64,000 nt of DNA from Candidatus Peribacteraceae bacterium (GCA_028711445.1 JAQTSD010000002.1:27044-91043), one strand, 5' to 3'; counted from the first letter of the stretch, positions 9,202 through 54,540 are shown. Numbers and translations: made by a program. The notes: generated by a model not told the origin, from the sequence alone.

Positions 9202-9255
9202 GGGCGAAGCATAGCATTTCCGTCGCCCCCCTGTACTCTGGCATACTCTCCTCCT

Positions 9256-11993: not shown

Positions 11994-12070
11994 AAAGAAT
12001 CCAAAGAAACCAAAGAGTCCAATGAGTCCAAGGGAATTCATCTTTGGCTTCCTTGGTTTCCTTGGACTCC
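11994..12070. repeat. palindromic element built from tandem 9-mers (NNNNCCAAR-G), copy B
   Basis: GAATCCAAAGAAACCAAAGAGTCCAATGAGTCCAAGG ... TTTGGCTTCCTTGGTTTCCTTGGACTC. 12024-12033 pairs perfectly with 12060-12069. It shares AAAGAAACCAAAGAGTCCAA with copy A and lies between convergent genes. Confidence 0.6.
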
Positions 12071-33137: not shown

Positions 33138-34076
33138 ATGACTCTTTCTCAAACCATCCTCGGTGTCCGGTTTTCCAACCCCACCGTTCTTGCTTCGGGT
33201 ATCTGGGGGATCACGGCAGCGAGTTGGCGTGCGGCGGCGAGGGTCGGAGCAGGAGGAGTGACGACGAAATCCCTCTGGTTGAAGGAGCATCGCGGCCACG
33301 TCAGTCCGGTGATCATCGCCACGGACCATTGGACACTCAATGCCGTCGGAGTGCCGGATGCCGGCATCGAGAAGGCACGCGAGGAGATCGGGGACTACCA
33401 GAGAGATCCACCTGTTCCTCTGATTGCGAACATCATTGCCGACACGGTCGAAAATTACGGCAAGACCGCTTCGGCGATCGCGAAGCTCAAACCGGAATTT
33501 CTTGAGGTGAATATCAGCTGCCCGAATGTGGAGGATGAGTTGGGCAAGCCCTTCGCCTGTTCTGCGCACGCTGCCGCGGCTGTCACGAAAGCCGTGAAGG
33601 CTGTCAGCGGGAAGATCCCCGTCTTCATTAAGCTCTCGCCGAATGTCGACTCCATCGCCGCGATCGCACAGTCCTGCGCCGCCGCCGGCGCGGACGGCTT
33701 CACCGTCATCAATACCGTCGGGCCGGGCATGGCGATCGACTTGAAGAGCCGCATGCCCATCCTCACCAACCGTGTCGGCGGTCTCTCTGGTCCGGCCATC
33801 AAGCCGATCGCGGTCCGGTGCATTGCGGACGTCTACCGTGCGACGGACGGCGAGCTCCCGATCATCGGGACGGGAGGCGTGATGACCGGCGAAGACGCGC
33901 TGGAACTCATGCTTGCGGGTGCGAGTCTCATCGGTATCGGATCTGCCGTCGGCTATCGAGGTCACAAGGTTTTTTCACTTGTCTGTGCGGAGATGGAGAC
34001 ATGGTGTAAGCGGGAGGGGGTCAGGAAGATCGGGGAGATGGTGGGGGCATTGAAAGATGTACAACATAAGGCATGA
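33138..34076 (+). CDS. pyrD: dihydroorotate dehydrogenase B, catalytic subunit
   Basis: NPTVLASG...GGVTTKS...LNAVGVPDAG...EVNISCPN...FIKLSPN...INTVGPGMAIDL...GGLSGPAIKPIAVR...IIGTGGV. The start (33120 or 33138) is uncertain. Confidence 0.9.
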   Translation: MTLSQTILGVRFSNPTVLASGIWGITAASWRAAARVGAGGVTTKSLWLKEHRGHVSPVIIATDHWTLNAVGVPDAGIEKAREEIGDYQRDPPVPLIANIIADTVENYGKTASAIAKLKPEFLEVNISCPNVEDELGKPFACSAHAAAAVTKAVKAVSGKIPVFIKLSPNVDSIAAIAQSCAAAGADGFTVINTVGPGMAIDLKSRMPILTNRVGGLSGPAIKPIAVRCIADVYRATDGELPIIGTGGVMTGEDALELMLAGASLIGIGSAVGYRGHKVFSLVCAEMETWCKREGVRKIGEMVGALKDVQHKA

Positions 34077-34903
34077 GTACAACTATTCCATTACAGGCGC
34101 GGCTTCCGAAGACTTATAAAATCACTTCCATGAAGCGTGAGACGGAGCAGGTGACATCATGTACATTTGACGTATCGCTTGGATCGCGGCCCGGACAGTT
34201 TGTGATGCTGTGGCTTCCCGGGGTGGAGGAGATCCCCATGAGCGTGGCGAATGATGACGGAAAGCAACTCACAGTTACATTCTTCGCTGTCGGAGAGACT
34301 ACCAAGAAGCTGGCGGGGTTGAAGAAAGGTGATCTGGTCGGACTGCGCGGTCCCTTTGGGACATTCTACGAATGGAAACCTCGTCAGAAGCTCGCACTTG
34401 TCGCGGGTGGTTATGGTGCTGCTCCAATGTATTTCACGGCGAGAGAAGCGGCGAAAGATGGTTGTACACTTTTCATCTTCGTTGGTGCACGAAGTAAAGA
34501 GCATCTCCTCTACCTTTCGGCGTTTAAGAAATTGCCACGTACGACCTTGTATATTTCAACCGATGATGGCTCACAGGGGTTTAAAGGTTTCAATGTGCAA
34601 TTGCTGGAGAAGATGCTCAAAGAGGGCAAGCAAGCCCTTACAATCGACCAGATCTTCGCCTGCGGACCCGAACGGATGCTTAAGGCCGTCTCAGATCTCT
34701 CCTTCAGGAAAAAGATTCTCAGCCAACTCTCGTTGGAGCGTTACATGAAGTGCGGTTTCGGCCTGTGCGGCAACTGCGTCGTCGACCCGCTCGGTATCCG
34801 CCTCTGTATCGATGGACCAGTTGTGAAGAATGATCTTGCGCGCAAGATCACGGAATTCGGGAAGTATCATCGGGATGAACTGGGGAGAAAGAGAGTGTTG
34901 TAG
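34073..34903 (+). CDS. pyrK: dihydroorotate dehydrogenase electron transfer subunit
   Basis: FAD/NAD-binding fold (RPGQFVMLWLPG...EIPMSV; LVAGGYGAAPM). C-terminal 2Fe-2S ligands MKCGFGLCGNCVVD. ATGA overlap with pyrD. Confidence 0.9.
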   Translation: MSTTIPLQARLPKTYKITSMKRETEQVTSCTFDVSLGSRPGQFVMLWLPGVEEIPMSVANDDGKQLTVTFFAVGETTKKLAGLKKGDLVGLRGPFGTFYEWKPRQKLALVAGGYGAAPMYFTAREAAKDGCTLFIFVGARSKEHLLYLSAFKKLPRTTLYISTDDGSQGFKGFNVQLLEKMLKEGKQALTIDQIFACGPERMLKAVSDLSFRKKILSQLSLERYMKCGFGLCGNCVVDPLGIRLCIDGPVVKNDLARKITEFGKYHRDELGRKRVL

Positions 34904-36073: not shown

Positions 36074-36253
36074 CGGTGAAACTCTATGCGATGAGAAGAG
36101 AGATGGTCAAGGTAAGAACTGATCAAAGACGAAGTTCTCAGAAAGAAACCAGTGTTTTTTCGAGACAAATTAGGTTTGACATTCGGCATTGGTGGTATCA
36201 AGATGCCTCTTTCCCGGCGCACCACCATTATTATGTTATCTTTCCGAAGAAAG

Positions 36254-37132
36254 ATGGCTGGGCTAACGATTTCCGATCTCCTCAAGCGGAAAGGTCCTGT
36301 CGAGGTGATCGGTTGCCACAGCCCTCTTTCGGGGAAGATTGCCGAGTCTGTCGGGTTTCAGGCACTCTGGCTCAGTAGCCTGGAACTCTCCGCTCTCAAC
36401 GGGGTTCCGGATGCGAATTTTCTCACCATGTCCGAAAATTTGGATATGGTGCGCAACGTTTGCCAAGCAGTATCCATCCCTGTCATTGCGGATTGCGACA
36501 GCGGCTACGGGAACGAGTTGAATGTCTATCGTATGGTACAGCTCTACGAACAGGCGGGTGTGAGTGGGATATGTCTTGAAGATAACGTGTATCCCAAAAA
36601 ATGCAGCTTCTACGAAACGAGTGCGGATGAAGTAGTCACTCCTGAAGAGCATGCCAGACGTATCGCTGCGGCAGTGCAAGCTCGTCACAATGGCCTCTTC
36701 ATCATTGCAAGAACCGAGGCGTTCATTCGTAACCTTGGTCTCAAGGAGGCATTGCATCGCGCATCCGTGTATGAGAAGGCGGGGGCCGACGCAATCTTGG
36801 TACACTCCAAGAAGAAAACAGACGAAGATCTCGTTGAGTTCGTAAAGGCTTGGAATGGCAAGGTTCCTCTTGTTTGCGTGCCGACGACCTATAATCAGTA
36901 TTCCTCCTCCGAGCTCTTCGAGCGCGGCTACAAGATCATCATTTTCGCCAATCATGGTCTCCGCGCCAGCATTAATGCGATGAAAGAGGCATTTGCGCTT
37001 ATAAAGGAGAAGCATCGTACCAAAGATCTCGACGATCAGATCGCATCACTACAAGATGTCTTCGAACTCACAGATGTCGACGCAATGCAGCAACTCATTG
37101 CATCTTTCAACCGCTCTCATGACGTACGCTGA
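36254..37132 (+). CDS. PEP mutase / isocitrate lyase superfamily enzyme, PEP-mutase-like with non-canonical active-site motif
   Basis: Collinear with PEP mutase as I recall it: GFQALWLSSLELSA..GVPDAN, DCDSGYGN, ILVHSKKKTDEDLVEFVKAW, FANHGLRAS. The signature reads EDNVYPKKCS instead of EDKxxxxxNS. Confidence 0.75.
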   Translation: MAGLTISDLLKRKGPVEVIGCHSPLSGKIAESVGFQALWLSSLELSALNGVPDANFLTMSENLDMVRNVCQAVSIPVIADCDSGYGNELNVYRMVQLYEQAGVSGICLEDNVYPKKCSFYETSADEVVTPEEHARRIAAAVQARHNGLFIIARTEAFIRNLGLKEALHRASVYEKAGADAILVHSKKKTDEDLVEFVKAWNGKVPLVCVPTTYNQYSSSELFERGYKIIIFANHGLRASINAMKEAFALIKEKHRTKDLDDQIASLQDVFELTDVDAMQQLIASFNRSHDVR

Positions 37133-37508
37133 ATGTAAATCTCAGGGTTTTGATTTTATCGTCGGCGTTCCCTGTTCATCGCTCAAGCAGTTCATCGAGG
37201 ATCTGCAGAGAGACGAACCCGGGCGATACATCCCTGTTCAACGTGAAGACACGGCGGTCGCTCTCGCAGTCGGCGCTTTCTTTGCTGGCAAGAAACCCCT
37301 CGTATTCCTCCAAAACAGCGGTCTCGGACATATCGTGAACATCGTTTCCTCCCTTTTGATTCCCTACGAGATTCCCATCCACTTTCTCGTCACCATGCGC
37401 GAGATGCCTTTCGAACATACGCACATGTACAAGATCACGAAGCCACTTCTCTCCCTTCTTGGCATTGAATCTCGCACGTTTCTCTTCGATGCCAGCTCCC
37501 ATGTTTGA
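37119..37508 (+). CDS. TPP-dependent 2-oxoacid (phosphonopyruvate/sulfopyruvate-type) decarboxylase, alpha subunit
   Basis: FDFIVGVPCSSLKQFI...PVQREDTAVALAVGAFFAGKKPLVFLQNSGLG is a ComD/Ppd N-terminal (PYR) domain pattern. Overlaps the stop of the mutase-like gene. Confidence 0.75.
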   Translation: MTYAECKSQGFDFIVGVPCSSLKQFIEDLQRDEPGRYIPVQREDTAVALAVGAFFAGKKPLVFLQNSGLGHIVNIVSSLLIPYEIPIHFLVTMREMPFEHTHMYKITKPLLSLLGIESRTFLFDASSHV

Positions 37509-37974
37509 AATGACGCGATTGCAGGCAGTTCGTTCGGTGCTCGATACACTGACTGATGAGCTGCTTATTGTCACAACCGGCTTTCTCTCACGCGATGTCT
37601 TTCATCTGCGGGATCGCAAAGAAAATTTTTACATGTGCGGTTCCATGGGGAATGCGTATCCCATCGGTATGGGGATTGCACTGGGCAGTCCGGAGCGGAC
37701 CATTACAGTCCTTTCCGGCGATGGAGCGGCACTCATGAGTCTTGGAAGTTTGGTGCTCGGAAACAGTCTCAAGTTGCCAAATCTGTGGCATATCATCATT
37801 GATAACAAGAAGTATGCTTCGACGGGGGGACAGCCGACGTGCAGTGATGGCATCGACTTTACACAGTTCCACAATACGCGGGTCATTCATGTGGATCATG
37901 ATGAGCCTGCATCCCCCCGCATCACACTTGATCCTGTCGAGATTGCTCGCCGGTTCCGTTTCTGCATCCGATGA
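37501..37974 (+). CDS. TPP-dependent 2-oxoacid decarboxylase, beta subunit
   Basis: GSMGNAYPIGMGIAL...VLSGDGAALMSLGSLV...IIIDNKKYASTGGQ is the TPP-binding GDG-x(24-27)-N motif (ComE/Ppd C-terminal half). ATGTTTGA overlap with the alpha subunit. Confidence 0.8.
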   Translation: MFEMTRLQAVRSVLDTLTDELLIVTTGFLSRDVFHLRDRKENFYMCGSMGNAYPIGMGIALGSPERTITVLSGDGAALMSLGSLVLGNSLKLPNLWHIIIDNKKYASTGGQPTCSDGIDFTQFHNTRVIHVDHDEPASPRITLDPVEIARRFRFCIR

Positions 37975-39392
37975 CCAGGGGAACACTCATCAGTGGCAAG
38001 TGGACGGTCTCGTTGCGGGCACGCGAAGTCATGAACCCGTTTTCGGGGGAGAAAGTGGGGGAAGTACCCTTACTTGAGCGAGAGCAAGTCATCCATGCCA
38101 TCGAAGATGCGGCTACATTCCACTCGTCGCTTACTCCATATGAGCGCTTCGTGATTCTGCGGAATGCGGCGAATATGGTTATGGAGAGAAAAGATGAAAT
38201 CGCGTGCCTCATTTCTTCGGAATCAGGACTGGCGTTGAAAGATACACGACATGAGGTGGAGAGAACGCATAATGTATTACTTCTGAGTGCCGAAGAAGCC
38301 AAGCGACAGCGGGGAAGTGTGTATCAATCGGATGTTGTTCCCCAGACGACCGGACGGGTGGCATTCACCATCCGGGAACCTGCGGGTCTGATTCTTGCAA
38401 TCACGCCGTTCAATCATCCCATGAATCAAGTGGCACATAAGATCGGGCCGGCGATTGCAATGAACAATACTGTTCTATTGAAGCCGTCGCTGAAGACGCC
38501 ACTCTCTGCCATCCGTCTTACAGAGATTCTCCTCGAAGCGGGTCTTCCACCGCGTATGCTGTCTGTTCTGACGCTCGACGTGATGGAACATGCACGCTTT
38601 CTTCTCTCACATCCTGCGATCGACATGGTGTGTTTTACCGGTAGTACGGAAAGCGGAGAGAAAGTACTCAAGGAAACCGGTGTGAAGAAAACTCTTATGG
38701 AACTGGGAGGTAATGACGTATGTATTCTCTGTGAAGATGCAGATGTTTCATCTCTCATCGATATGATCCTCATTGGTGGTCTGGGCAATTCCGGTCAACG
38801 GTGTACGTCGATCAAGAGACTGCTCTGCCACCGTTCCATCGCCGATGTTGTTGCGACTTCTTTGGGAGAAGCCGTCTCCCGTTTATGTGCCGGCGATCCC
38901 TTGCGGGAGGACACGGACATCGGGACGGTGATCGACGAAGAGGCGGCGATGACGATTGAACGCCGCATCCAGCAAGCATGCGCCATGGGGGCGAAGCTCC
39001 TCATAGGAGGGAGAAGAAAAGGTGCGCTCATCGAACCGACTCTGGTGGATTACATTCGGCCCGATATGGAATTGGTGCAGAAGGAGACGTTTGGGCCCGT
39101 TATCCCTCTCATCCGTTTCGATTCCGATGACGAGGCAATCAGGATGTGCAACGACACTCCTTTCGGATTGCAATCGGGCGTATGTACGAATGATCTTCGC
39201 AGAGCGATGCGTTATGTGCAGGGCATCCGCGCCGGCGCGGTCCATGTCAATCAGGCCCCGGGCTATCGTGTCGAATCCTGGCCGTTTGGCGGGATCAAGA
39301 AGAGCGGGTTTGGAAAAGAAGGTGTCGAACGAGCGTGTCTTGAAATGAGTACGGAGAAGCTTATATCCCTTCCTTTTCCTCCTTTTGCATGA
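37971..39392 (+). CDS. NAD(P)-dependent aldehyde dehydrogenase
   Basis: ITPFNHP, FTGSTESG, and MELGGND (catalytic Glu). GNSGQRCTS contains the catalytic Cys. EETFGPV. ATGA overlap with the upstream gene. Confidence 0.9.
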   Translation: MTRGTLISGKWTVSLRAREVMNPFSGEKVGEVPLLEREQVIHAIEDAATFHSSLTPYERFVILRNAANMVMERKDEIACLISSESGLALKDTRHEVERTHNVLLLSAEEAKRQRGSVYQSDVVPQTTGRVAFTIREPAGLILAITPFNHPMNQVAHKIGPAIAMNNTVLLKPSLKTPLSAIRLTEILLEAGLPPRMLSVLTLDVMEHARFLLSHPAIDMVCFTGSTESGEKVLKETGVKKTLMELGGNDVCILCEDADVSSLIDMILIGGLGNSGQRCTSIKRLLCHRSIADVVATSLGEAVSRLCAGDPLREDTDIGTVIDEEAAMTIERRIQQACAMGAKLLIGGRRKGALIEPTLVDYIRPDMELVQKETFGPVIPLIRFDSDDEAIRMCNDTPFGLQSGVCTNDLRRAMRYVQGIRAGAVHVNQAPGYRVESWPFGGIKKSGFGKEGVERACLEMSTEKLISLPFPPFA

Positions 39393-40714
39393 AGACCGTT
39401 CAGGAAATCATTAGGGCTGGGCGAGATGTGGAGGACCGCCTCGGTTGCGCACTCTTTCCAGATCTGCGTCTCGAGGATCTCGGTTGCCTTTCCATCGAGG
39501 ATTTACGACGTTGCTACCACAGAGAGATCGAGAGCATCATTACTCTTCACGGTTTGCTTCAATCGGGGATGGCACCGGCAGATCTTTCTTCCGTTGTGCA
39601 AACGATCAGCATCCACGGGAGGGAGCGCCCCGGAAGCCGGAGGGAAATCCTGGGTTTTCCCGTGAAAGCGATTGGTTCGAACATTCGCAGACAGGATATC
39701 GATTGGAATCAATTCACTTGTGAGCAATCCGGCGTGTGCCGCGAAGGGGATATCGTTATCGCCCGCGCTCTCTCGAGCAGGGGATCGATCAATCAACTGG
39801 AAGATCAAGCCGGCCGTGAAGTGCGGATCTTCGAAGGAGATCACTTCATGACGGTAATGGGGAATCGCCACTCCGGGACATCCGAGTATGGAGAACTGAC
39901 GGATGGGCAAATGGAGTTGCAGCCAGATACCGAAGTGGATCTTCTCTGCCATGGAGGTATTCTTGGTCATGGCATATGTATTCCGCGCAGCAGAGCAGTG
40001 CAGACCTTCTTCAAGGTGCACGTGGCTGCAATTCTCAGAAATGGCGGCCGCAATCTCAATCTTCTGGATCTGTATCCGGCGTGGGATAAGGAGATGCTGC
40101 CGTCCGCACCTATCATCTTCAACTGCGGCACATCGGCTGAGATCGGAAAGACGACATCTTCCTCCTCGATTATCCGAGCGCTGAAAAGAATGGGGAAGCG
40201 TGTCGGAGCGGCGAAGCTGGCCGGGACCGGCCGATATCGCGATTTACTTTCGATGCGCGATGCCGGTGCCGACTTGTACTTCGACTTCCCGGATGTGGGA
40301 TTGCCGTCAACATACACAAGTCCGTCCCGGTCATACCCGGCTGCTGTTACGCTTCTCAATAAGTTGAATCGTGGGAAGGTCGACGTGGTCGTTGCCGAAA
40401 TGGGGGGCGATATCATCGAGGCAAACATTCCTTCCGTTCTTCAGTCTCCGGAAATGATGCGTTATGCGAATGGCATCGTGCATTCATCCGCCGATATTCT
40501 TGGCATTCTCGGCTCATTGCAGCGGTATCGCGACTTTGGGGTGCAAGTGCCTGTCATGCTCACACTTCCGAAAGACCGCAACGATGCAGGAACGCGGGAG
40601 CGGCTTCAACAAGAGCATCTTTCGGCCTTCGATGTCATGAATATGCGGGAGTGCGATCAGGTGGTGGGAGCCCTCCTTCGCTGCCGCGAGGGGGAATCGA
40701 TATTTCCTGTATAA
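39389..40714 (+). CDS. hypothetical protein with C-terminal P-loop-like domain (GTSAEIGKTT)
   Basis: 441 aa. Walker-A-like NCGTSAEIGKTTSS, followed by VVVAEMGGD. This resembles the dethiobiotin-synthase/DUF1611-type nucleotide-binding fold. Family not recognised with certainty. Confidence 0.55.
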   Translation: MKTVQEIIRAGRDVEDRLGCALFPDLRLEDLGCLSIEDLRRCYHREIESIITLHGLLQSGMAPADLSSVVQTISIHGRERPGSRREILGFPVKAIGSNIRRQDIDWNQFTCEQSGVCREGDIVIARALSSRGSINQLEDQAGREVRIFEGDHFMTVMGNRHSGTSEYGELTDGQMELQPDTEVDLLCHGGILGHGICIPRSRAVQTFFKVHVAAILRNGGRNLNLLDLYPAWDKEMLPSAPIIFNCGTSAEIGKTTSSSSIIRALKRMGKRVGAAKLAGTGRYRDLLSMRDAGADLYFDFPDVGLPSTYTSPSRSYPAAVTLLNKLNRGKVDVVVAEMGGDIIEANIPSVLQSPEMMRYANGIVHSSADILGILGSLQRYRDFGVQVPVMLTLPKDRNDAGTRERLQQEHLSAFDVMNMRECDQVVGALLRCREGESIFPV

Positions 40715-40745
40715 TGCCGTACTTCTTCTTTCCCACTTTTGCACC

Positions 40746-41768
40746 ATGGAATTGAGAGGTTCTGACATTCTCACAATGGATCAGTTCGATCGGGAAGATC
40801 TCCGTCGTATTTTCGATACGGCTGCAGAGATGGAGGTGTATGCATCGAGACAAAAAATGACACGCGTTCTCGAGGGGGCAGTCTTGGCGAATCTGTTCTT
40901 CAGTTCGAGCACGCGTTCGCGCATCAGTTTTGGCTCAGCATTCAATCGTCTCGGTGGAGCAGTACGCGATACGACGAGCATTGACGAGTCGTCCATTGCC
41001 AAAGGGGAATCTCTCGAAGCGACTGCCCGTGTAGTCAGTGGTTACTCTGATGCGATTGTTCTGCGTTACCCGGAGGAAGATGCAGCCAAAATGGTTGCCG
41101 ATGCATCACCGCTGCCCGTGATCAACGGAGGAGACGGATCCAACGAGCACCCCACACAAGGGCTCCTCGATATCTTCACTATCCTGAAGGAGCGCAAGAT
41201 GTCTCTTGACGATCTTGACGGTCTCGTCGTTGCCGTTGGAGGAGATCTGAAGTACGGGCGTGCTGCCCACTCGATTGTCAAAGGACTCTCCATTTTTCGT
41301 AACATTTGCTACAAACTCATTGCCACGGATGAACTGCAAATGCCTGACAAGATTGTGGAACTCCTTCGCAACAGGGGGCATCAGGTCTTGCAGACCAGCG
41401 ATCTTTCTGAGGGGATCAAAGATGTGGACATCGTTTACATGACACGCAATCAAGAGGACAGGATGCCTCGTGAACTCGCTACGCACTTGCGCGGGAAGAT
41501 CTTCCTCGATCGTCGCACTTATGAGCGCTACGCCCGTCCCGATACCACGATCATGCACCCCCTCCCGATTGACATTCGGCCGGGTGCACAGGAAATCAAG
41601 CCTGATCTCTACGATCACCCGAACTTCGCGGTCTATCGTCAAACGGATAACGGTATGCCGGTGCGGATGTCGATTTATGTACATCTCCTCGGGGTCGTTG
41701 ACAGAGTACATGACACGGTCAGAGATGCGTTTTGGTTCCGACCGGATCGTACGGATTCCCATAGATGA
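40746..41768 (+). CDS. pyrB: aspartate carbamoyltransferase catalytic chain family protein
   Basis: LANLFFSSSTRSRISF (STRTR variant), AIVLRYP, NGGDGSNEHPTQ, GDLKYGRAAHS, YMTRNQEDR, HPLP...YRQTDNGMPVRMSI. Confidence 0.8.
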   Translation: MELRGSDILTMDQFDREDLRRIFDTAAEMEVYASRQKMTRVLEGAVLANLFFSSSTRSRISFGSAFNRLGGAVRDTTSIDESSIAKGESLEATARVVSGYSDAIVLRYPEEDAAKMVADASPLPVINGGDGSNEHPTQGLLDIFTILKERKMSLDDLDGLVVAVGGDLKYGRAAHSIVKGLSIFRNICYKLIATDELQMPDKIVELLRNRGHQVLQTSDLSEGIKDVDIVYMTRNQEDRMPRELATHLRGKIFLDRRTYERYARPDTTIMHPLPIDIRPGAQEIKPDLYDHPNFAVYRQTDNGMPVRMSIYVHLLGVVDRVHDTVRDAFWFRPDRTDSHR

Positions 41769-42232
41769 TTATGCATTTTGATGTTCCCGGTGTCGGCCCA
41801 ATAGATATTGATACGATTCTTCTCGATCTGAATGGGACGCTTCGTGATAAAAAAAAGTTTTTGGTGCCGGGTGTGAACACGCGCATAGCAAGGTTGCGGG
41901 AACTGGTACGTCTCATCCTTCTCTCAGGCGATACGCGGGGGGATGCAGCCGTTCTGGCAGAAGAACTTGGCATCGAATTTATCCGTACTCCGACGGCAGC
42001 AGATAAAGGTGCGATTGTTGATCGGCTTGGGGCAGAACATTGTGCCGGGATTGGGAACGGTCTCATCGATCTTACTATGGTTGAAAGGGCTCGTATTGGT
42101 ATTGCCGTTCTCCAAGGCGAGGGGGCTCACATGAAAACATTGCATGCTGCCGATATCGTCGTGACCAGTGTGAACGACGCACTCGATTTTTTTCTCGATG
42201 AGAAGAGCTTGATCGCCACTTTACGGGCATAG
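41765..42232 (+). CDS. HAD-superfamily hydrolase, soluble P-type-ATPase-like (COG4087-type)
   Basis: ILLDLNGTL (DxxGT variant), LLSGDTRG, AGIGNGLID...GIAVL. 155 aa. ATGA overlap with the ATCase stop. Confidence 0.7.
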   Translation: MIMHFDVPGVGPIDIDTILLDLNGTLRDKKKFLVPGVNTRIARLRELVRLILLSGDTRGDAAVLAEELGIEFIRTPTAADKGAIVDRLGAEHCAGIGNGLIDLTMVERARIGIAVLQGEGAHMKTLHAADIVVTSVNDALDFFLDEKSLIATLRA

Positions 42233-42281
42233 GGGCATTTGCATGCAGGAAAACGATGCAATATGAGTTGGCACTCTTCTC

Positions 42282-42310
42282 TTGCGAGTGCTAAATCGGT
42301 GTGCTAGACT
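42282..42310 (+). promoter_or_regulatory. mini-gene promoter, copy 1 (-35 TTGCGA, 17 bp, -10 TAGACT)
   Basis: TTGCGA at 42282-42287 and TAGACT at 42305-42310. Copy 2 has identical hexamers and identical spacing. Confidence 0.6.
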
Positions 42311-42342
42311 GCGGATCCTTCATTTCTTTCCCCCTCTTTCCC

Positions 42343-42393
42343 ATGACCGGTGGCGGTAAAGGCGGGTGTGGCGGCTGCTGTGGCTGCTGCTAA
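42343..42393 (+). CDS. 16-aa Gly/Cys-only peptide MTGGGKGGCGGCCGCC (mini-gene copy 1)
   Basis: My own translation; the ORF is below the track cutoff. ATG, reading frame, stop and the C-terminal CCGCC are conserved in the second copy at 46204..46260. It has its own promoter and terminator. Confidence 0.55.
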   Translation: MTGGGKGGCGGCCGCC

Positions 42394-42430
42394 CCCCTTC
42401 GGGGCGAGTGTCGCCCACATGAAATCCTCA

Positions 42431-42451
42431 GGCGGCCGCAAGCCGCCTTTT
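42431..42451 (+). terminator. rho-independent terminator of mini-gene copy 1
   Basis: GGCGGC-CGCAA-GCCGCC followed by TTTT. Confidence 0.75.
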
Positions 42452-45117: not shown

Positions 45118-45669
45118 TTACAAAATATATGGAATAAACATTCTCACCTTCTTCTTGTATGCGGCATATGACTCCGGAAATATCGTAGCCAGCAAGGTCT
45201 CTTCCTTCCGTGCACGCAAGTACAGACCAATGAGGAGGGCGAAGAACAGGAGAAAACCCTCCAGATGGCGGTACCATAGGATGGTTCCAAATGTCAGACA
45301 GGAGAATCCCGTGTAAATGGGATGGCGAACGAAGCGGTACGGACCGGACCGGACAAGCTCGTGACGCTCTTTGAGCGTGAGATCCGCGCTCCAGTTGCGA
45401 CCGAGACTTGTTCGCGCCCAAATTTCAATACCCGTACCAAGAATGACAAATACCAAAGCCACGTCATCAAGTACAAACGAATCTGTCCATAGCAACAACC
45501 CCGTATATCCGAGACGGGCGAGAATAGTGTACGCGATGATGAGAAGATAAAGAAAAATTCTCTGCCATTTCCAGCTTTGTCTTACGAGAGTCCTCTTCGC
45601 TGAGAATGCGGCGAAGGAGGCGTCCAAGAACGGATGCACACTCAAAGTCTTCGTCGGTGCGCGGAGCAA
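45118..45669 (-). CDS. isoprenylcysteine carboxyl methyltransferase (ICMT/PEMT) family membrane protein
   Basis: LVRSGPYRFVRHPIYTGF...RKEETLLATIFPESYAAYKKKV is the characteristic ICMT-family C-terminal motif. The first ~26 codons are antisense to the pyrK fragment, so the true start is uncertain. Confidence 0.75.
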   Translation of the reverse strand: MLRAPTKTLSVHPFLDASFAAFSAKRTLVRQSWKWQRIFLYLLIIAYTILARLGYTGLLLWTDSFVLDDVALVFVILGTGIEIWARTSLGRNWSADLTLKERHELVRSGPYRFVRHPIYTGFSCLTFGTILWYRHLEGFLLFFALLIGLYLRARKEETLLATIFPESYAAYKKKVRMFIPYIL

Positions 45670-46072
45670 AGATCACCTCCTCTACCTCCCGGCATTCAAA
45701 AAATTACCGCGCACGACCCTGCACGTCTCGACCGATGACGGGTCGCAGGGATTCAAGGGTTTCAATGTGCAGCTGTTGGAGCGGTCACTCAAGGAGAAGA
45801 AATCGGCATTCGTCGATCAGATCTTCGCCTGCGGGCCGGAGCGGATGCTGAAAGCGGTCTCCGATCTCTCCTTCGAGATGAAGATCCCCAGCCAACTCTC
45901 TCTGGAACGGTACATGAAGTGCGGTTTCGGCCTGTGCGGCAACTGCGTGGTCGATCCGCTGGGTATCCGCCTCTGCACCGATGGGCCGGTGGTGCGTAAT
46001 GACATCGCGCGAAAGATCACGGAATTCGGGAAGTATTGTCGGGACGATCTTGGCCGAAAGCATTCATTTTAG
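45590..46072 (+). pseudogene. pyrK: 5'-truncated, diverged second copy of the pyrK 3' half
   Basis: My in-frame translation is ...LFAENAAKEASKNGCTLKVFVGARSKDHLLYLPAFKKLPRTTLHVSTDDGSQGFKGFNVQLLE...QIFACGPERMLKAVSDLSF...LSLERYMKCGFGLCGNCVVDPLGIRLC...ITEFGKY...*. It aligns with residues ~125-276 of the intact PyrK (34073..34903). No N-terminal FAD domain and no start context. Confidence 0.8.
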
Positions 46073-46128
46073 GGTTAGGATTAGGGGGATGCTTTCGTCT
46101 TATCCTAACCCTAACACCTAACCCTAAA
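46069..46128. repeat. hairpin made of TTAGGG/CCCTAA-like units
   Basis: TTAGGGTTAGGATTAGGGGG...ATCCTAACCCTAACACCTAACCCTAAA. GGGTTAGGAT (46072-46081) pairs perfectly with ATCCTAACCC (46102-46111). Confidence 0.4.
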
Positions 46129-46142
46129 CTGGCACTCCCCCC

Positions 46143-46171
46143 TTGCGAGTGCCAATTTCCCATGCTAGACT
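46143..46171 (+). promoter_or_regulatory. mini-gene promoter, copy 2 (-35 TTGCGA, 17 bp, -10 TAGACT)
   Basis: TTGCGA at 46143-46148 and TAGACT at 46166-46171. Confidence 0.6.
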
Positions 46172-46203: not shown

Positions 46204-46260
46204 ATGACCGGTGGCGATAAAGGCGGCGGGTGTGGCGGCGGCTGCTGTGGCTGCTGCTAA
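46204..46260 (+). CDS. 18-aa Gly/Cys-only peptide MTGGDKGGGCGGGCCGCC (mini-gene copy 2)
   Basis: It differs from copy 1 by one substitution (GGT to GAT) and two 3-nt (GGC) insertions. The frame, the stop and the C-terminal CCGCC are preserved. Confidence 0.55.
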   Translation: MTGGDKGGGCGGGCCGCC

Positions 46261-46295
46261 ACCCCTCGAGCGGCTCTCGCTCGCATGATCTCGAA

Positions 46296-46316
46296 GGCGG
46301 CCCGTGGCCGCCTTTT
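46296..46316 (+). terminator. rho-independent terminator of mini-gene copy 2
   Basis: GGCGGCC-CGT-GGCCGCC followed by TTTT. Confidence 0.75.
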
Positions 46317-46383
46317 CATGACGGTTTCTTGTCCCTCCTCTTGCGCCACTGTTCCCGAAGAAGTTCTGAGGGGGGGCTATTGT

Positions 46384-46419: not shown

Positions 46420-48108
46420 ATGGCGAAGCGGACTCCTGACCATGAACCGGGCCAACCCAAGAAGAAGAAATTTGGACCTCATCTGCGTTTGGAGGCTCTC
46501 CTTGCGAAGGAGTGCACTATCGAAACGAGCAGGCTTTCTGAGTGCAATCAGCTCGATATTTGGAGACACCAGAGAGAACGACTGATTTGTGACTTGGCAT
46601 TCATTGGTCTCGATCAGGGCGACCATTCCGAAATAACAGTTGCCGATCTTCATGATCGCGAAGAACTCATTGAGGCTCTTCTGGATCTTGTCCATAGAAA
46701 CCGTTTCAACCCCGATGAAAGCAATGATGTGTTGGGGATGGATCGCCATGCAATCGAGTGTGAGTGCGGTATCAAGTTCGGGAAAAGGTTCTGGTCAATG
46801 CGAGAGCCATTCATCGAGAACTGGCAAGGACGGTACCGTCCTGATGCGGCGCGGCGCGAACTATTGAAACGCGTGATCGAGGAGGAGAAGCAAACGGAAG
46901 AGAAAGATCAATGGCCGCTGGAAGACCGTGTATGGGACTGGGCACAGTGGTACTTCCGCGGTGGATGCCCGCGAGAGGTGGAAGTTCCGGAGGATCAAGA
47001 TCCCGAAGAAGTTCTTCGCATACTTGATCGGGATTGTGCATTCATCGAGCAGCTCTCTTTATCAGAGTCTGATTGCGGAGAGGCGATTCGATCATTGATA
47101 ATTCAATTTCTCAGTGGCGAATACCCGATTGTCACCAGCGAAGAGGATCCTGTATCTGAGGAGGCCATGCTCGGAGTCGCCGAAAGGATTGCACGGGCTC
47201 CGGATGCAGCTTTCCTTGGCGAAGGTCTTCGTGGTATTGCAGTTTCAAATGTGATGAAGCGGTATCGGGAGTATCTTGCACAGGGTCTCAGTTTCGAAGC
47301 GGAAGAGGCGAAAAGAGGAGAGGAGCAGCAGGCAGAGGATCGCATGCTTCTTCTCAGTCGCGAACGAGCGCAGAGAGAATATGATGTCGAATCTGCTTTT
47401 CTACAGAGTTTGAATCTTCCCGATTATGAGGCGCAGCAATGGCCGGAATTACTTCGGTGTGCTCTTTTACGTGGTGCAATACATATCGATCCAGCCTACC
47501 GTGAACGCGTTCATGGCCATGTGCGATGTTTCATCGGGAGAATGCCATGGCCCAAAGAGGAGCTCCCGGGAGCCGATCCATGGGGTCCATTAGGGCAAAT
47601 GCTGGCGAGCTATTGGCATGGTCATTACTACCCCGACAACTTACGGTGGAGGATTCTCCAGGAAGAATGTGCGAAGCTTCCACCGGGTTTTTCTGAAAGA
47701 AGGGGCGGGCTCTCGTCCATTGTTTCTACCTATCTATTACATGTCATGTTTATGGAAGGGTGTGCGAACGATGGTGCCAAGGTTGGTGCTTCTCAGGATC
47801 CGGAGATGCTCGAAATGGCCTATGCAAATGATATGCAACTCATTCGCAATCTCGGACTTCCGGATGACCTCTTCCGGGAAGCGGAATGGGGATATAACGA
47901 ATGGCTGCTTGGGGGGAATTTTATGCTCGCCGCCGATCGCGAATTGCCGGAGGATAGGGATAAACTTGCGAGACGACTGGCTGCTCGTCTGGAGGAGAGT
48001 GGAGGAGATCCTGCACAAGTCAGTTCATACTTCGTGAGCCAGATCCTTCAGGAGTTTTGTGAACATTGGCTCGCAGTTTCCAAGCGTCCAGCGCCTAGGA
48101 AGGAATGA
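46420..48108 (+). CDS. hypothetical acidic protein (562 aa)
   Basis: Long uninterrupted ORF behind a near-consensus promoter. It is rich in Glu/Asp/Trp/Cys, has no TM segment, and I recognise no family. Confidence 0.6.
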   Translation: MAKRTPDHEPGQPKKKKFGPHLRLEALLAKECTIETSRLSECNQLDIWRHQRERLICDLAFIGLDQGDHSEITVADLHDREELIEALLDLVHRNRFNPDESNDVLGMDRHAIECECGIKFGKRFWSMREPFIENWQGRYRPDAARRELLKRVIEEEKQTEEKDQWPLEDRVWDWAQWYFRGGCPREVEVPEDQDPEEVLRILDRDCAFIEQLSLSESDCGEAIRSLIIQFLSGEYPIVTSEEDPVSEEAMLGVAERIARAPDAAFLGEGLRGIAVSNVMKRYREYLAQGLSFEAEEAKRGEEQQAEDRMLLLSRERAQREYDVESAFLQSLNLPDYEAQQWPELLRCALLRGAIHIDPAYRERVHGHVRCFIGRMPWPKEELPGADPWGPLGQMLASYWHGHYYPDNLRWRILQEECAKLPPGFSERRGGLSSIVSTYLLHVMFMEGCANDGAKVGASQDPEMLEMAYANDMQLIRNLGLPDDLFREAEWGYNEWLLGGNFMLAADRELPEDRDKLARRLAARLEESGGDPAQVSSYFVSQILQEFCEHWLAVSKRPAPRKE

Positions 48109-48235
48109 CCAAGGCAATAATTCGTAGAGGCAATAAGCTCTGCCACTAGTGGTTCGCGACGGAATTTCCTCTATACTATGCGATGTGTCATCCTGAGCCT
48201 GTCGAAGGGTCGACACACCGTTGTTCTTTGAGCTA

Positions 48236-48310
48236 GGCCCTATCGTCTAATGGTTAGGACATCAGGTTTTCAGCCTGAGAATCGGGGTTCGATTCCCCGT
48301 GGGGCTGCCA
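48236..48310 (+). tRNA. tRNA-Glu (anticodon UUC)
   Basis: Manual cloverleaf fold. Acceptor stem GGCCCTA/TGGGGCT (two G-T wobbles), D arm GTCT/GGAC, and anticodon stem TCAGG/CCTGA with loop TTTTCAG (anticodon TTC). T arm CGGGG-TTCGATT-CCCCG, with an encoded CCA. Confidence 0.9.
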
Positions 48311-48460
48311 TTCTGCGTCGCAAGCTATGCAGAATGGCAGGGGGGTGGTCTGCGAAGCTCTCTGCTTTGCGTAGCTTCGCAGCGCAAAGCGCGGAGTATG
48401 ACCTTGGAGTTGCTGGAATAAATATTCCGGTTGATCAGCTATAACGCTATAGTCTGAAGC

Positions 48461-51400
48461 ATGTCTAGTGATTTGATGGAAGATCCCATTCTAAACTCGC
48501 CCTACAATGAGCCGAGCAGACATTTTGGTGCTGACGAGAGAGGTCTGACGCAAGAAGTAGTAGAGAGTCGCCGTCCAAGTAGTTTCTACATTCCAGTCCC
48601 GAAAGCAAAGACGAAGCAGAAGCAACTCGACTTACATCTTGCCGAGGGTGCCTTCGGGAGTGAGTTGCAAAAAGAGAATGAATTTATTAACAAGGTCAGA
48701 GCGAAGATAAAGGAGTGGCGAGCGATCGGTTACTCAGGAATCACCAAGGCCTCGCGCGATCTGCTTATGTATTGGAAAGATGAATCGAGAGATAACAAAT
48801 TATTCTATTGCCAAATCGAAGCATTAGAAACATTGATGTACATCAATGAAGTCGCGGAGAAGTCTGGGGACAGTTGGATTATCAATGAACTCAAGAAAGC
48901 AAATGCAGACGCCAATCCTGGTCTGTATCGATTGGCTTTCAAAATGGCTACAGGATCGGGCAAGACTGTTGTCATGGCAATGATCATTGCCTATCACACA
49001 CTGAATAAAATCCGCTATCCGCAGGACACGCGTTTCACAGATGCATTCGTCATTGTGACGCCGGGCATCACGATTCGTGATCGTCTCAATGTTCTTCATC
49101 CAAATGATCCACAGAACTACTACCGCTTACGCAACATTGTTTCCTATCAAGACCTAGAACTCTTACAACAGGCCACGGTTCACATAACAAATTTCCATCA
49201 GCTAGAACAACGACAGAACCAACGTTTTCAGGTGGGAGGTGTATTGAAAGCCGCCAAGCTGCTTAAGGAGGAGGCAATGAAAGAAACCCCCAGTGCGATG
49301 GTGAATCGTGCATTTAAGAGTGTTCTCTCCAAATCGCGTGTGCTCGTGATAAACGATGAGGCTCATCACTGTTACCGCGAGAAACCCAGTGAACAGAAAC
49401 TCTCAGGTGAAGAGCGGAAGGAGGCTGATGAGAATAACAAGGCAGCGCGGGTCTGGATCAGTGGATTGGAAGCACTAGCGCAAAAGATCAATATCAATGC
49501 GGTTATTGATCTCTCTGCCACACCGTACTTCCTCAGTGGTTCTGGTTACGCCGAGGGCACATTATTTCCATGGACTACGTTCGATTTCTCCCTGTTGGAT
49601 GCTCTTGAATGTGGAGTTGTGAAGATCCCACGCCTTCCCATCGAATCAGACACCATCTCGATTGATGATGAGCCAGAATTTCGTAATCTGTGGCTCCACG
49701 TTCGCGATAATTTGCCAAAAAAAGGATTGAAAACTGGAAACTACGATCTCTCTGTACTTATCCTTCCAACGAAGCTACAAGAGGCATTGGAGTCCCTCTA
49801 TGGAAACTATGAGAAGTATCATCGGGAGTATGAGAAACAGAAAAAAGGAAATCCTGCGGTGATGCCACCGGTGATGATTGTCGTATGTAATAACACGACA
49901 GTCTCAGAGCTTCTGTACCGCTGGATTGCAGGATATGAGAGGGAGACTGCAAGTGGTCAGATTAAGATTGAGAAAGGTAATCTCGAAATATTCCGAAACG
50001 AAGATGGCGTTCGTTTCTTTGATCGGCCTAGCACCCTCCTCATAGATAGTGCCCAGATTGAGAGTGGAGAGAAGATTAGTGATGAATTCAAAAAGATCTT
50101 CACCAAAGAGATCGCTGATTTCCATAAGGAATACCACAAACGTTTTCCGGGTCGTGAAGATCCAACCGATGAAGAGCTCTTGCGTGAGGTGATGAATACC
50201 GTAGGTAAACCGGGGAAGCTTGGAGAAAACATCAAGTGTGTTGTTTCAGTATCCATGCTTACCGAGGGATGGGATGTGAATACTGTCACTCACGTTCTCG
50301 GCGTTCGCGCATTCTCAACACAGCTCCTTTGTGAACAGGTCGTGGGCCGCGCTTTGAGACGAGTGGATTACAGCGTTGATGACTCAACAGGGCTTCTTTC
50401 TCCTGAGTACGCAGAGGTATATGGGGTGCCATTTAGCTTCCTGAAAGCAACGGGGCCCACGCCACCACAGCCGCCGAAGGTAATCCACAGAGTACGTTCT
50501 CTTCCTGAGCGAGAGGATCAGTACCAAATTACCTTTCCACGTGTTGAAGGGTATCGATATGAACTTAACGAAACCAAGCTCTCTGCTCACTTCACCGAGG
50601 AATCAAAAACCATTATTGAGAATGAACCTACTGAAGTGACCTTAGGTGGTCTCATTGGCAAAGAGGAAAAAGAGATGCTCGAAAAAATTAAAGAGCGCCG
50701 TGAGGGAGAGGTCATCATTCGATTGGTACAGAGTCTGCTAAAACGTTATTACACAGATGCAGATGGCAGTGAAAAGTATTGGCTGACACCAAAATTGATG
50801 AAGATTACTGAGGAATATGTGAAGCACCATGTCATCCTGAAAGACCGCATGGTAATTGGTTATCTCTCCGTCGGAGCGTATTTCTCTGGTGCACTCACAA
50901 AGATTCAACAGGCTATTGTGACGGATAATTTAGAGAGCCAAAAAGACAGGAAGGTACTGCCGATTCTGGCCCCTTACGACACTCTTGGATCAACGCGTTA
51001 TGTAGATTATCTGACAACGAAAGAGGTTCGCGAAACGGTGAAGAGTCACATCAATTATGTGGTCGCTGATACGCAAGAGTGGGAGCAGGGGGTTGCGAAG
51101 AAGCTGGAACAGATGCCAGAGGTTCTAGCCTATGTAAAAAACCAGAATTTGGGCTTCACCATTCCCTATGAACATCAGGGCGCAGCTCATCAATATATTC
51201 CCGACTTCATAGCTGTCCTGAAATTGCCTGATGGAAGTAAGTTGAATTTGCTCATCGAAGTAACAGGGAAAAAAGACGACAAGAAGGCGACGAAGATCAA
51301 GACGGCCCGTGAGCTTTGGGTACCTGCGGTCAATAACAATGGGAAATTTGGAGTTTGGGCAGTGATTGAAATCCAAGACATCCATGAGACACAGAATCTC

Positions 51401-51463
51401 ATTCGTGCCGGTATGGCGAGAGGGTTTGACCATATCGTTCCCGATAGTTTGTTTACCAAATAA
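48461..51463 (+). CDS. res: type III restriction enzyme, Res subunit (SF2 helicase plus PD-ExK nuclease)
   Basis: Walker A MATGSGKTVVMA, DEAH box INDEAHHCY, motif VI QVVGRALRR, and a C-terminal nuclease core YIPDFIAV...LLIEVTGKK. Confidence 0.88.
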   Translation: MSSDLMEDPILNSPYNEPSRHFGADERGLTQEVVESRRPSSFYIPVPKAKTKQKQLDLHLAEGAFGSELQKENEFINKVRAKIKEWRAIGYSGITKASRDLLMYWKDESRDNKLFYCQIEALETLMYINEVAEKSGDSWIINELKKANADANPGLYRLAFKMATGSGKTVVMAMIIAYHTLNKIRYPQDTRFTDAFVIVTPGITIRDRLNVLHPNDPQNYYRLRNIVSYQDLELLQQATVHITNFHQLEQRQNQRFQVGGVLKAAKLLKEEAMKETPSAMVNRAFKSVLSKSRVLVINDEAHHCYREKPSEQKLSGEERKEADENNKAARVWISGLEALAQKININAVIDLSATPYFLSGSGYAEGTLFPWTTFDFSLLDALECGVVKIPRLPIESDTISIDDEPEFRNLWLHVRDNLPKKGLKTGNYDLSVLILPTKLQEALESLYGNYEKYHREYEKQKKGNPAVMPPVMIVVCNNTTVSELLYRWIAGYERETASGQIKIEKGNLEIFRNEDGVRFFDRPSTLLIDSAQIESGEKISDEFKKIFTKEIADFHKEYHKRFPGREDPTDEELLREVMNTVGKPGKLGENIKCVVSVSMLTEGWDVNTVTHVLGVRAFSTQLLCEQVVGRALRRVDYSVDDSTGLLSPEYAEVYGVPFSFLKATGPTPPQPPKVIHRVRSLPEREDQYQITFPRVEGYRYELNETKLSAHFTEESKTIIENEPTEVTLGGLIGKEEKEMLEKIKERREGEVIIRLVQSLLKRYYTDADGSEKYWLTPKLMKITEEYVKHHVILKDRMVIGYLSVGAYFSGALTKIQQAIVTDNLESQKDRKVLPILAPYDTLGSTRYVDYLTTKEVRETVKSHINYVVADTQEWEQGVAKKLEQMPEVLAYVKNQNLGFTIPYEHQGAAHQYIPDFIAVLKLPDGSKLNLLIEVTGKKDDKKATKIKTARELWVPAVNNNGKFGVWAVIEIQDIHETQNLIRAGMARGFDHIVPDSLFTK

Positions 51464-53946: not shown

Positions 53947-53982
53947 TACCCAACTTCTTTATCATATTATGAAACCAAAAAT

Positions 53983-54540
53983 ATGAAAGCTAATCCCTCC
54001 GAGCAGCCATCCATTCATCTCTGTAAACAATGTGGCAGAATTCCTAAAACAAATGAGGATCCCACATTTGTTAACTATAGCTGGAAAGTCTGGGATAAGT
54101 CTCGGGATCGAGGAAGAATCTGCGAATGCGAACACTGTGAACAGCGATTCTTGGAATACGATATTTCAGCAGACTTCTACGGTCCAAAGGCATTTGAAGT
54201 GAGCATAGAAGGTACTGATTGGATTCCCATTACAAAGCAGGAAGTGGATATCCTCAGATCGAACGATGCGGGATGGTGGTACATTAAAAAACTCGTAACT
54301 ACCAGAAGTCATCTCTATAGAGAAAATGGTCGGTATTTTTGGCACAAACTAAAAAAACAAACAAAAGCGAAGGATTTAGCTGATAGCATGCTACGTGCTC
54401 TGAAAGAAGTTAACGAACGATCTATGCGAAAGGGTGGGGGTTGGGTACCACAGTGGGATGAAATGAACGGGAATGAACGTAGGGAATATCTGAAGTTTCT
54501 TGAAGAAAAAACTCGTCATTCCTCAGACAGAGAAGAATGA
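53983..54540 (+). CDS. hypothetical Zn-ribbon protein
   Basis: 185 aa. CKQCG...CECEHC provides four Cys ligands. Basic C-terminal half. Lies in the low-GC island. Confidence 0.5.
   Translation: MKANPSEQPSIHLCKQCGRIPKTNEDPTFVNYSWKVWDKSRDRGRICECEHCEQRFLEYDISADFYGPKAFEVSIEGTDWIPITKQEVDILRSNDAGWWYIKKLVTTRSHLYRENGRYFWHKLKKQTKAKDLADSMLRALKEVNERSMRKGGGWVPQWDEMNGNERREYLKFLEEKTRHSSDREE

Follow-up and report, generated by a model that had tools for sequence, protein, structure and literature searches.

Introduction

To our knowledge, the heat-shock repressor HrcA and its operator CIRCE govern essentially chaperones. The targets of this regulon (groESL, hrcA-grpE-dnaKJ) are chaperone and protease genes, and the operator is located at a sigma-70-type promoter. 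CIRCE, the operator of HrcA, is described by the consensus TTAGCACTC-N9-GAGTGCTAA (PMC545781, PMC7464140). In the literature that we searched, we found no micropeptide or small-ORF member of the CIRCE regulon and no work on HrcA in Peregrinibacteria or CPR bacteria.

Metallothioneins and phytochelatins are characterised as low-complexity, Cys-rich peptides whose length varies. Examples are the bacterial SmtA/BmtA and MymT, the fungal Cu-metallothionein with 25 aa, and phytochelatin, the enzymatic product (gamma-Glu-Cys)n-Gly. The smallest gene-encoded metallothionein that we know of has 25 aa. Attenuators of the HisL/PheL/TrpL type consist of an ORF of 14–16 codons with one or two dominant residues, followed by hairpins and a terminator. 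Precursors of the microcin B17/TOMM type carry a Gly/Cys(/Ser)-rich core and a leader, and are encoded adjacent to a cyclodehydratase/dehydrogenase. Very short precursors without a classical leader exist as well (MccA). Vicinal cysteines are found in high-Mr thioredoxin reductases, where GCCG or SCCS forms the redox-active C-terminal motif (GCCG in nematodes, SCCS in Drosophila, GCUG in mammals; PMC11508645).

The window, i.e. the whole stretch of 64,000 nucleotides of DNA that was analysed, originates from a MAG of the uncultivated family Peribacteraceae (Peregrinibacteria, candidate phyla radiation). The pyrK product encoded in the window shares 100% identity with an NCBI protein of a Candidatus Peribacteraceae bacterium MAG, and the nearest GTDB genome is that of Candidatus Peribacteria UBA11694. 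The window contains two copies of a short transcription unit, and copy 1 is a real, unannotated gene for a 16-residue Gly/Cys peptide. Its operator and those of its relatives are like the operators of the HrcA/CIRCE regulon, with 15–18 of 18 matching positions at a sigma-70-type promoter. In contrast to the chaperone and protease genes of that regulon, the gene behind the operator is here an ORF of 9–29 codons with its own terminator.

Results and Discussion

The coordinates of all features are collected in Table 1. The anatomy of copy 1 can be read directly from the sequence. Both promoter boxes and their spacer, the ATG, the 16 codons with the stop codon and the terminator agree with what a first-pass annotation of this DNA had described. 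The promoter of copy 1 is absent from the list of a generic sigma-70 scan of the window, because merely 8 of the 12 hexamer positions match. Since the generic scan misses it, the promoter call rests on the conservation in all relatives, where the counterparts of the −35 box are TTGCGA, TTGTGA or TTGAGA. A TGn plus TAnnnT −10 element at unchanged spacing is found in the CIRCE-bearing relatives with the exception of L032, and −10 box and ATG are 29–32 nt apart in 12 of 12 elements. The predicted transcript of copy 1 has a length of ~135 nt.

Table 1. Features of the two copies in the window, and peptides encoded by the relatives.
Feature	Position	Strand	Description
CIRCE operator, copy 1	42268–42294	.	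TTGGCACTC-TTCTCTTGC-GAGTGCTAA; 17/18 consensus positions
−35 box, copy 1	42282–42287	+	TTGCGA; direct reading; within CIRCE spacer and right arm
Extended −10, copy 1	42302–42310	+	TGC-TAGACT, 17 nt past −35; TAGACT 42305–42310, TG 42302–42303
Predicted 5' leader, copy 1	42314–42342	+	CU-rich, without Shine-Dalgarno; start site predicted to ±3 nt
Micro-ORF, copy 1	42343–42393	+	16 codons, MTGGGKGGCGGCCGCC; TAA 42391–42393
Hairpin, copy 1	42402–42416	+	GGGCGA-GTG-TCGCCC; between stop and terminator
Intrinsic terminator, copy 1	about 42430–42451	+	GGCGGC-CGCAA-GCCGCC-TTTT; also listed by terminator scan
pyrK-paralogue C-terminal fragment	45609–46072	+	stop codons upstream; travelled with copy 2
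CIRCE operator, copy 2	46129–46155	.	CTGGCACTC-CCCCCTTGC-GAGTGCCAA; 15/18 vs consensus
Promoter, copy 2	46143–46171	+	TTGCGA, 17 nt, TGC-TAGACT; sequence reading
Micro-ORF, copy 2	46204–46260	+	MTGGDKGGGCGGGCCGCC plus TAA; sequence reading
Hairpin, copy 2	46268–46282	+	GAGCG-GCTCT-CGCTC; sequence reading
Intrinsic terminator, copy 2	46297–46317	+	GGCGGCC-CGT-GGCCGCC-TTTT; sequence reading
Peptide, L021/L022			MTGGGKGGCGGCCGCC
Peptide, L023/L024			MIGGGKGCCGSC
Peptide, L025/L026			MSGGCCGGCGDKK
Peptide, L027			MIGGGKCGC
Peptide, L028/L029			MFGGGCSCGK; non-CIRCE palindrome
Peptide, L030/L031			MVGGGKGGCCGCGSC
Peptide, L032			MSTGPGSCCGFGPGGCCSFGPGCGGGGCC
Peptide, L033			MSGGEKGGCCGLMGGGGGCGCGSC
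Peptide, L035/L036			MIFDDEKQGGCCGGCCS; CIRCE 18/18
Peptide, L037/L038			MSGGEKGGCCGCC

Two hairpins had been proposed between the stop codon and the terminator. The one listed in Table 1 was found again and is kept in copy 2 by compensatory G:C to A:T exchange, but it does not occur family-wide; the other, CCCC-TTCG-GGGG, is unconserved even in the nearest relative. At the terminator site every relative carries a GC-rich hairpin with a T-run, with a different sequence each time.

The second copy that had been reported is also present. In comparison to the ORF of copy 1 it contains two in-frame GGC insertions and the exchange G5D. Two instances of the Gly/Cys coding pattern are present in the window, compared to none in 100 shuffles. 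Both copies can be aligned from the palindrome ~75 nt 5' of the ATG through TTTTCATG past the terminator, and nowhere beyond. Since a pyrK fragment precedes copy 2, the ancestral position of the micro-gene is directly after pyrK, and this order is seen in 10 lineages. Copy 1 of the window genome has been relocated to a site ahead of otsAB. The neighbouring otsAB makes trehalose, a compatible solute. It is a speculation that read-through beyond the 4-T terminator of copy 1 could place otsAB under heat control.

The −35 box of copy 1 is enclosed by a CIRCE palindrome, which the first-pass annotation had overlooked. Both arm variants of the window are tabulated upstream of groESL in Desulfovibrio (PMC545781 Table 8): the arms of copy 1 are those of the D. 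desulfuricans site, and the arms of copy 2 are those of the D. vulgaris site. In copy 2, eight of nine arm positions form a perfect palindrome (TGGCACTC/GAGTGCCA). A search of the window with the consensus at N9 spacing, allowing ≤3 mismatches, returned the sites of copy 1 and copy 2 only, whereas none of the 100 shuffled controls gave a match. In ~340 kb of fetched Peribacteraceae DNA, all CIRCE sites with ≤3 mismatches lie 5' of a micro-ORF. The arms are conserved across the relatives and the spacer is variable, with scores of 18/18 in L035 and 17/18 in L027 and L033.

The position of the predicted −35 box inside CIRCE is not restricted to copy 1, as a like arrangement was found in 8 further lineages; in L032 the −35 box overlaps the right arm at its end only. 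L028 possesses the micro-ORF with another palindrome in place of CIRCE. Genes for hrcA, groES or dnaK were found neither in the window nor in the fetched loci. The unit is very probably independent and under the control of CIRCE, and by its operator the micro-gene qualifies as a candidate member of the HrcA regulon.

Other operators and promoters were considered. A sigma-54 promoter (TGGCAC...TTGC) was rejected because its spacing is N7 rather than N5; its TGGCAC is accounted for by the CIRCE arm. A metal-sensor operator of the CsoR/RcnR type, with a C-tract between inverted repeats, was discarded as well, the C-tract being different between the copies. The operator is of the CIRCE type, unlike a metal-sensor site of the SmtB/CsoR/MerR type.

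To find relatives, GTDB genomes, JGI metagenomes and IMG/VR were searched with a degenerate ORF pattern. The GTDB genomes gave seven matches, one of which was true (L002, Candidatus Peribacteria UBA11694), and the JGI metagenomes eleven with two true ones (L011 with 17 aa, and L012). The single match in IMG/VR occurred by chance, and no true relative was found there. Judged by these scans, the exact peptide type is confined to one close lineage, comprising L002 and the JGI contigs L011 and L012. Diverged relatives were recovered by synteny only. As the unit follows pyrK in this close lineage and copy 2 follows a pyrK fragment, we sampled relatives via pyrK and thus independently of the ORF. 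This sampling covered 11 lineages of one family with a pyrK protein identity of 65–87%.

A Gly/Cys micro-ORF was found 100–500 nt downstream of pyrK in 10 of the 11 lineages, nine of which also carry CIRCE. In the remaining lineage, L034, micro-ORF and CIRCE are both absent after pyrK. Common to the relatives are the extended −10, a CU-rich leader, the micro-ORF and a strong terminator of lineage-specific sequence. In total, 12 distinct peptides of 9–29 aa were obtained. The earlier description of a self-contained, independently transcribed mini-gene is thereby borne out, both by the directly readable anatomy and by the like unit in these ten lineages. An assembly or repeat artefact, which had been named as a possible refutation, was rejected, since the micro-gene is present in independent NCBI, JGI, ENA and Logan assemblies.

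The pyrimidine leader without Shine-Dalgarno sequence had been pointed out before. It is indeed present in copy 1, with 96% pyrimidine across the 25 nt 5' of the ATG, but it is no oddity. A Shine-Dalgarno-like tetramer precedes only 2 of 33 window genes compared to 15% of random background 25-mers, and CU-rich leaders are common among ordinary window genes. Candidatus Peribacter riflensis is likewise listed as an SD-scarce organism without the CCUCC anti-SD core (PMC10783764). We therefore regard this leader as the normal start context. The leaders of the relatives are also CU-rich and without Shine-Dalgarno sequence, and they carry TTCTTTCCCC-like motifs. A longer, 30-aa precursor starting from the GTG at 42301 was rejected: a 1-nt indel breaks its frame in L002, L011 and L012, and its start would fall inside the −10 box.

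Evidence for coding was obtained from three close, phylogenetically independent pairs (win1/L021, L033/L037 and L023/L027), which differ in the ORF by 9 synonymous and 0 non-synonymous changes. The synonymous share expected by chance is 23%, and 9 of 9 corresponds to P about 1.5e-6 for pairs that were picked after inspecting the sequences. In these pairs, leader identity is only 67–88%. Among the closest copies, the indels within the ORF are multiples of 3 and those of the flanks include 1-nt gaps. This is the outcome that the first-pass annotation had suggested checking for, but in-frame indels alone are weak coding evidence, because GGC/TGC repeats slip in threes regardless.

The composition of the product points in the same direction as the substitutions. 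A tally of ten peptides gave 46% Gly and 25% Cys, and all four codons for Gly as well as both for Cys are in use. A filter for ATG ORFs of 6–35 aa with ≥2 Cys and ≥50% Gly+Cys, applied to both strands of 280 kb, returned family members only, plus one 7-aa chance match. Folding of leader and ORF in 12 homologues revealed no excess of structure over shuffles (z −0.5 to +1.7); for the whole transcript of two copies, z was −1.6 and −2.2. The unstructured leader and ORF argue against a structured RNA, and on these folding energies a structured leader or thermometer was rejected. Rfam 15 gave nothing at the gathering threshold and chance-level matches only at E ≤ 10. From the synonymous-only changes, the kept composition, the specificity of the filter, the unstructured RNA and the lack of an Rfam match we conclude that the peptide, if translated as predicted, is probably the functional, selected product.

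Given its size and its separate promoter and terminator, the transcript could also be a heat-shock-regulated sRNA. Its CU-rich 5' end or its G-rich middle would then be functional, and the ORF would be incidental or secondarily translated (dual-function RNA). The good conservation of the CU-rich leader motif TTCTTTCCCC across lineages is in accordance with such an RNA. We nevertheless consider it unlikely, since all substitutions in the three independent pairs are synonymous and the amino-acid composition is kept, whereas nucleotide sequence and length (27–87 nt) vary freely. The folding and Rfam results described above speak against an sRNA, too. Further, there is little point in an anti-Shine-Dalgarno seed where a lineage makes no use of SD sequences, and comparable CU-rich leaders are found 5' of ordinary protein genes of the window.

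For a selected peptide, the precursor of a modified natural product or cofactor (azole, thioamide, chalkophore) has to be discussed, whose enzyme genes would have to lie in other parts of the genome. The Gly/Cys-rich core resembles those of microcin B17 or heterocycloanthracin, and the conserved N-terminal MxGGGK of 6 of the 12 peptides could serve as recognition element. MccA is a precedent for leaderless precursors of very short length. Precursors of the microcin B17/TOMM type, however, possess a leader and adjacent modifying enzymes, and neither was found near the micro-gene. To look for maturation enzymes, larger ORFs of the window were scanned with Pfam, and the gene table of every fetched locus was inspected. 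In agreement with the first-pass annotation, no gene for a YcaO, radical-SAM, LanB/C, DUF692 or prenyltransferase protein is located near either copy, and the surroundings of the unit in the 10 lineages contain no conserved gene for such an enzyme. In the nearest relatives, a frameshift disrupts the in-frame upstream extension from 42301. A variable length with 2 to 7 Cys would be unusual for an enzyme substrate, and a heat-shock operator is atypical of natural-product genes. The microcin-B17-type precursor suggested earlier, with neither a conserved leader nor modifying enzymes nearby, and modified peptides in general are thus very unlikely.

Individual neighbours were inspected for a functional link. 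An ICMT/PEMT-family methyltransferase (45118–45669) was considered as methylator of the C-terminal Cys, but it is unlinked to the unit in other lineages, and a prenyltransferase is missing. Copper and zinc genes were likewise dismissed as partners: csoR-copA follows the unit in L027 only and is not conserved, and a CDF transporter lies ~5 kb off in the UBA11694-like lineage only. Across the sampled lineages, there is no conserved neighbour hinting at redox or metal chemistry.

The neighbourhood also decides on the third alternative. In six lineages (L023, L030, L032, L033, L035 and L037), the gene that follows lies in convergent orientation. Co-directional next genes code for OtsAB, proteins of 562 and 650 aa without mutual similarity, RelA/SpoT, or csoR-copA with its own promoter. 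The proteins downstream of copy 2 and of L012 share no homology. HisL and PheL are leader peptides with a similar size and codon run, a terminator follows the ORF, base pairing is possible between the GGCGGC of the ORF and the 3' terminator arm, and a same-strand gene lies within 60–150 nt in the window and the UBA11694-like lineage. An attenuator in which a Cys/Gly-codon leader peptide senses tRNA charging and controls read-through (into otsAB for copy 1), as had been put forward earlier, is nevertheless effectively refuted by the convergent neighbours in those six lineages; same-strand neighbours are unrelated to each other and to Cys/Gly metabolism, and the homology between the copies ends exactly at the terminator. 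In contrast to attenuators, the micro-gene has no conserved downstream operon and possesses its own regulated promoter, and its peptide sequence is under purifying selection.

For the selected free peptide, the chemistry of the product has to be read from its composition. The motif [GS]CC[GS] (GCCG, SCCG or GCCS) is present in 10 of the 12 peptides, and the other two contain CxC. Like the C-terminal arm of high-Mr thioredoxin reductases, the peptides carry vicinal Cys flanked by small residues in a flexible Gly-rich stretch. There, the motif is the tail of a flavoenzyme, whereas it is part of a free peptide here, so that this is a resemblance and not homology.

Similarities to metallothioneins and phytochelatins are the low complexity, the Cys content of 25%, the CC/CxC/CxxC motifs, the variable Cys number and the near absence of aromatic residues, with three Phe in the ten-peptide tally plus one more in L035. 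Expression appears to be stress-linked in both cases. In contrast to metallothioneins, the backbone is made of glycine only, most members are below 25 aa, and a sensor of protein folding, rather than one of metals, would exert control. For the members of 24 and 29 aa there was no match in Pfam/NCBIfam, including the metallothioneins, even at E ≤ 10, and they are absent from a collection of 15 billion proteins. With the members of 9–10 aa, which have two Cys, a metal cluster would have to form on a very small peptide, and such peptides may be unstable.

Because the content of [GS]CC[GS] and CxC resembles the thioredoxin reductase motif as well as metallothioneins and phytochelatins, we propose a role as low-molecular-weight thiol. 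Drawn from composition, the function as thiol redox or metal buffer is a tentative assignment. The metal-thiolate (mini-metallothionein) role brought up in the first-pass annotation is plausible.

According to established HrcA biology, the following course of events can be proposed. Under normal conditions, HrcA bound to CIRCE would cover the −35 box and repress transcription; it would block RNA polymerase because this box sits within the palindrome. Upon stress, unfolded proteins would titrate GroEL, HrcA would become inactive and the ~135-nt mRNA could be made. It would consist of the ~25-nt CU-rich leader without SD sequence, the 16-codon ORF and the intrinsic terminator. In the peptide, the flexible Gly backbone would present the vicinal thiols ([GS]CC[GS], CxC). 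The product would act as a gene-encoded low-molecular-weight thiol during proteotoxic stress, either as sacrificial or recyclable redox buffer, as chelator of thiophilic metals, or as both, and might buffer oxidants or electrophiles. Overall, we lean towards a stand-alone, HrcA-repressed heat-shock micro-gene with a thiol-rich peptide as product.

Conclusion

We rate the micro-gene as new, as it is unlike described gene families; should its product turn out to chelate metals, the micro-gene would amount to a very small variation on the metallothionein idea. A more far-reaching reading is that the genome-reduced Peribacteraceae make a ribosomal low-molecular-weight thiol of 9–29 residues with vicinal GCCG dithiols, which is switched by HrcA and replaces compounds of the glutathione/phytochelatin type. 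We consider this doubtful, yet if it holds true, the unit would be the smallest known heat-shock gene and its product a new class of stress effector.

The reading as an HrcA-repressed micro-gene is directly testable, since synthetic peptides of this size are cheap and the operator can be assayed in any HrcA-containing host. Samples rich in Peribacteraceae were also identified, for example those behind JGI 3300009031, 3300009285, 3300025150 and 3300037810, or SRR22315508. As this case illustrates, very short ORFs in SD-less lineages can be recognised from the anatomy of promoter, leader and terminator in combination with comparative genomics. If the reading is true, HrcA/CIRCE would gain a new kind of member, with peptides down to 9 residues, and CPR bacteria would possess a stress effector overlooked by every gene caller. 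Encoding a thiol buffer or a chelator of metals could then take no more than a micro-ORF, without any biosynthetic pathway, which would be economical for reduced genomes.

Surroundings of the two copies

The first copy of the Gly/Cys micro-ORF (42343-42393) is immediately preceded by a phosphonate-type biosynthetic operon, and the genes 3' of the second copy (46204-46260) likely form a restriction-modification or defence island that also contains a tRNA-Glu gene. Directly 5' of copy 2 lies a C-terminal piece of a second pyrK, with stop codons farther 5'. Its DNA is 73-84% identical to the intact pyrK of the window and about 80% identical to pyrK of UBA11694, the nearest GTDB genome. The fragment together with copy 2 appears to stem from partial duplication, or from import, of a pyrK 3' end plus micro-gene.

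Between the pyrK stop codon and the CIRCE element (the HrcA operator) of copy 2, a telomere-like imperfect palindrome (GGGTTAGGATTAGGG ... CCTAACCCTAACACCTAACCCTAA) was observed, which could serve as pyrK terminator or as a recombination site. A related GGGTTAG/CCCTCA-rich stretch occupies the equivalent position in the UBA11694-like lineage (L021, 10700-10780). It was tempting to tie the membrane methyltransferase encoded between otsAB and copy 2 to the terminal Cys of the peptide, but this gene is unlinked to the unit in other lineages.

Features in the window and, where a locus is named, in related lineages (own coordinates)
Feature	Position	Strand	Remarks
Intact pyrK	34073-34903
pyrK fragment	45609-46072		compared with 34437-34903
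Telomere-like palindrome	46073-46128
ICMT/PEMT-family (isoprenylcysteine carboxyl methyltransferase-like) methyltransferase	45118-45669	minus
Phosphonate-type operon	36152-42232		PEP mutase; split TPP-dependent decarboxylase (37056-37974); aldehyde dehydrogenase; 441-aa protein of unknown function; OTCase-like carbamoyltransferase; HAD hydrolase
Putative island	46420-57018		unknown 562-aa protein; ResIII helicase (1000 aa); N6/N4 DNA methylase (827 aa); SMC/AAA ATPase (831 aa)
tRNA-Glu	48236-48310
UvrC	6955-9747	minus
Nonamer block	10074-10116		inside or overlapping ribosomal protein L25 gene
Nonamer block	11994-12036		3' end of DUF3048 gene
Two-TM protein, L023	11258-11644	minus
Two-TM protein, L030	11177-11701	minus
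Two-TM protein, L033	11098-11475	minus
Two-TM protein, L035	11080-11421	minus
Two-TM protein, L037	11065-11442	minus
Copper operon, L027	4270-8381
Palindrome, L028	11255-11290

The micro-gene in other lineages

In five lineages a small protein with two transmembrane helices (113-174 aa) is conserved in convergent orientation directly past the micro-gene terminator; it has no Pfam match, and its gene is absent from the window. In one further lineage (L027) the micro-gene encodes MIGGGKCGC and precedes a copper operon of csoR, HMA/cupredoxin and copA. This operon has a separate promoter, and its ATACCTGGGGTGGGGGTAT resembles a CsoR box.

In one lineage (L028, L029) the micro-gene encodes MFGGGCSCGK and lacks CIRCE. 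In both loci the perfect palindrome GTTTAGTACTAAAC is found between consensus TTGACA and TATACT, and the usual operator appears to have been exchanged for that of another regulator.

Apart from the micro-gene, the UvrC of the window contains a GNAT acetyltransferase domain inserted between the RNase H-like domains, a fusion shared with L025 and L028. Lys/Glu/Ser-rich DNA nonamer repeats (AAAGAAACCAAAGAGTCCAAGGAATCC...) occur in the window in two blocks about 1.9 kb apart.

Translation starts

Shine-Dalgarno-like tetramers were found upstream of 2/33 window genes, compared with 15% of random background 25-mers; the gene starts considered include 12831, 25033, 39389, 40746 and 54523 on the minus strand. 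This scarcity agrees with the listing of Ca. Peribacter riflensis among the Shine-Dalgarno-scarce organisms (PMC10783764). CU-rich leaders with TTCTTTCC-like motifs are common among window genes, and such leaders may constitute a lineage-specific translation-initiation signal.
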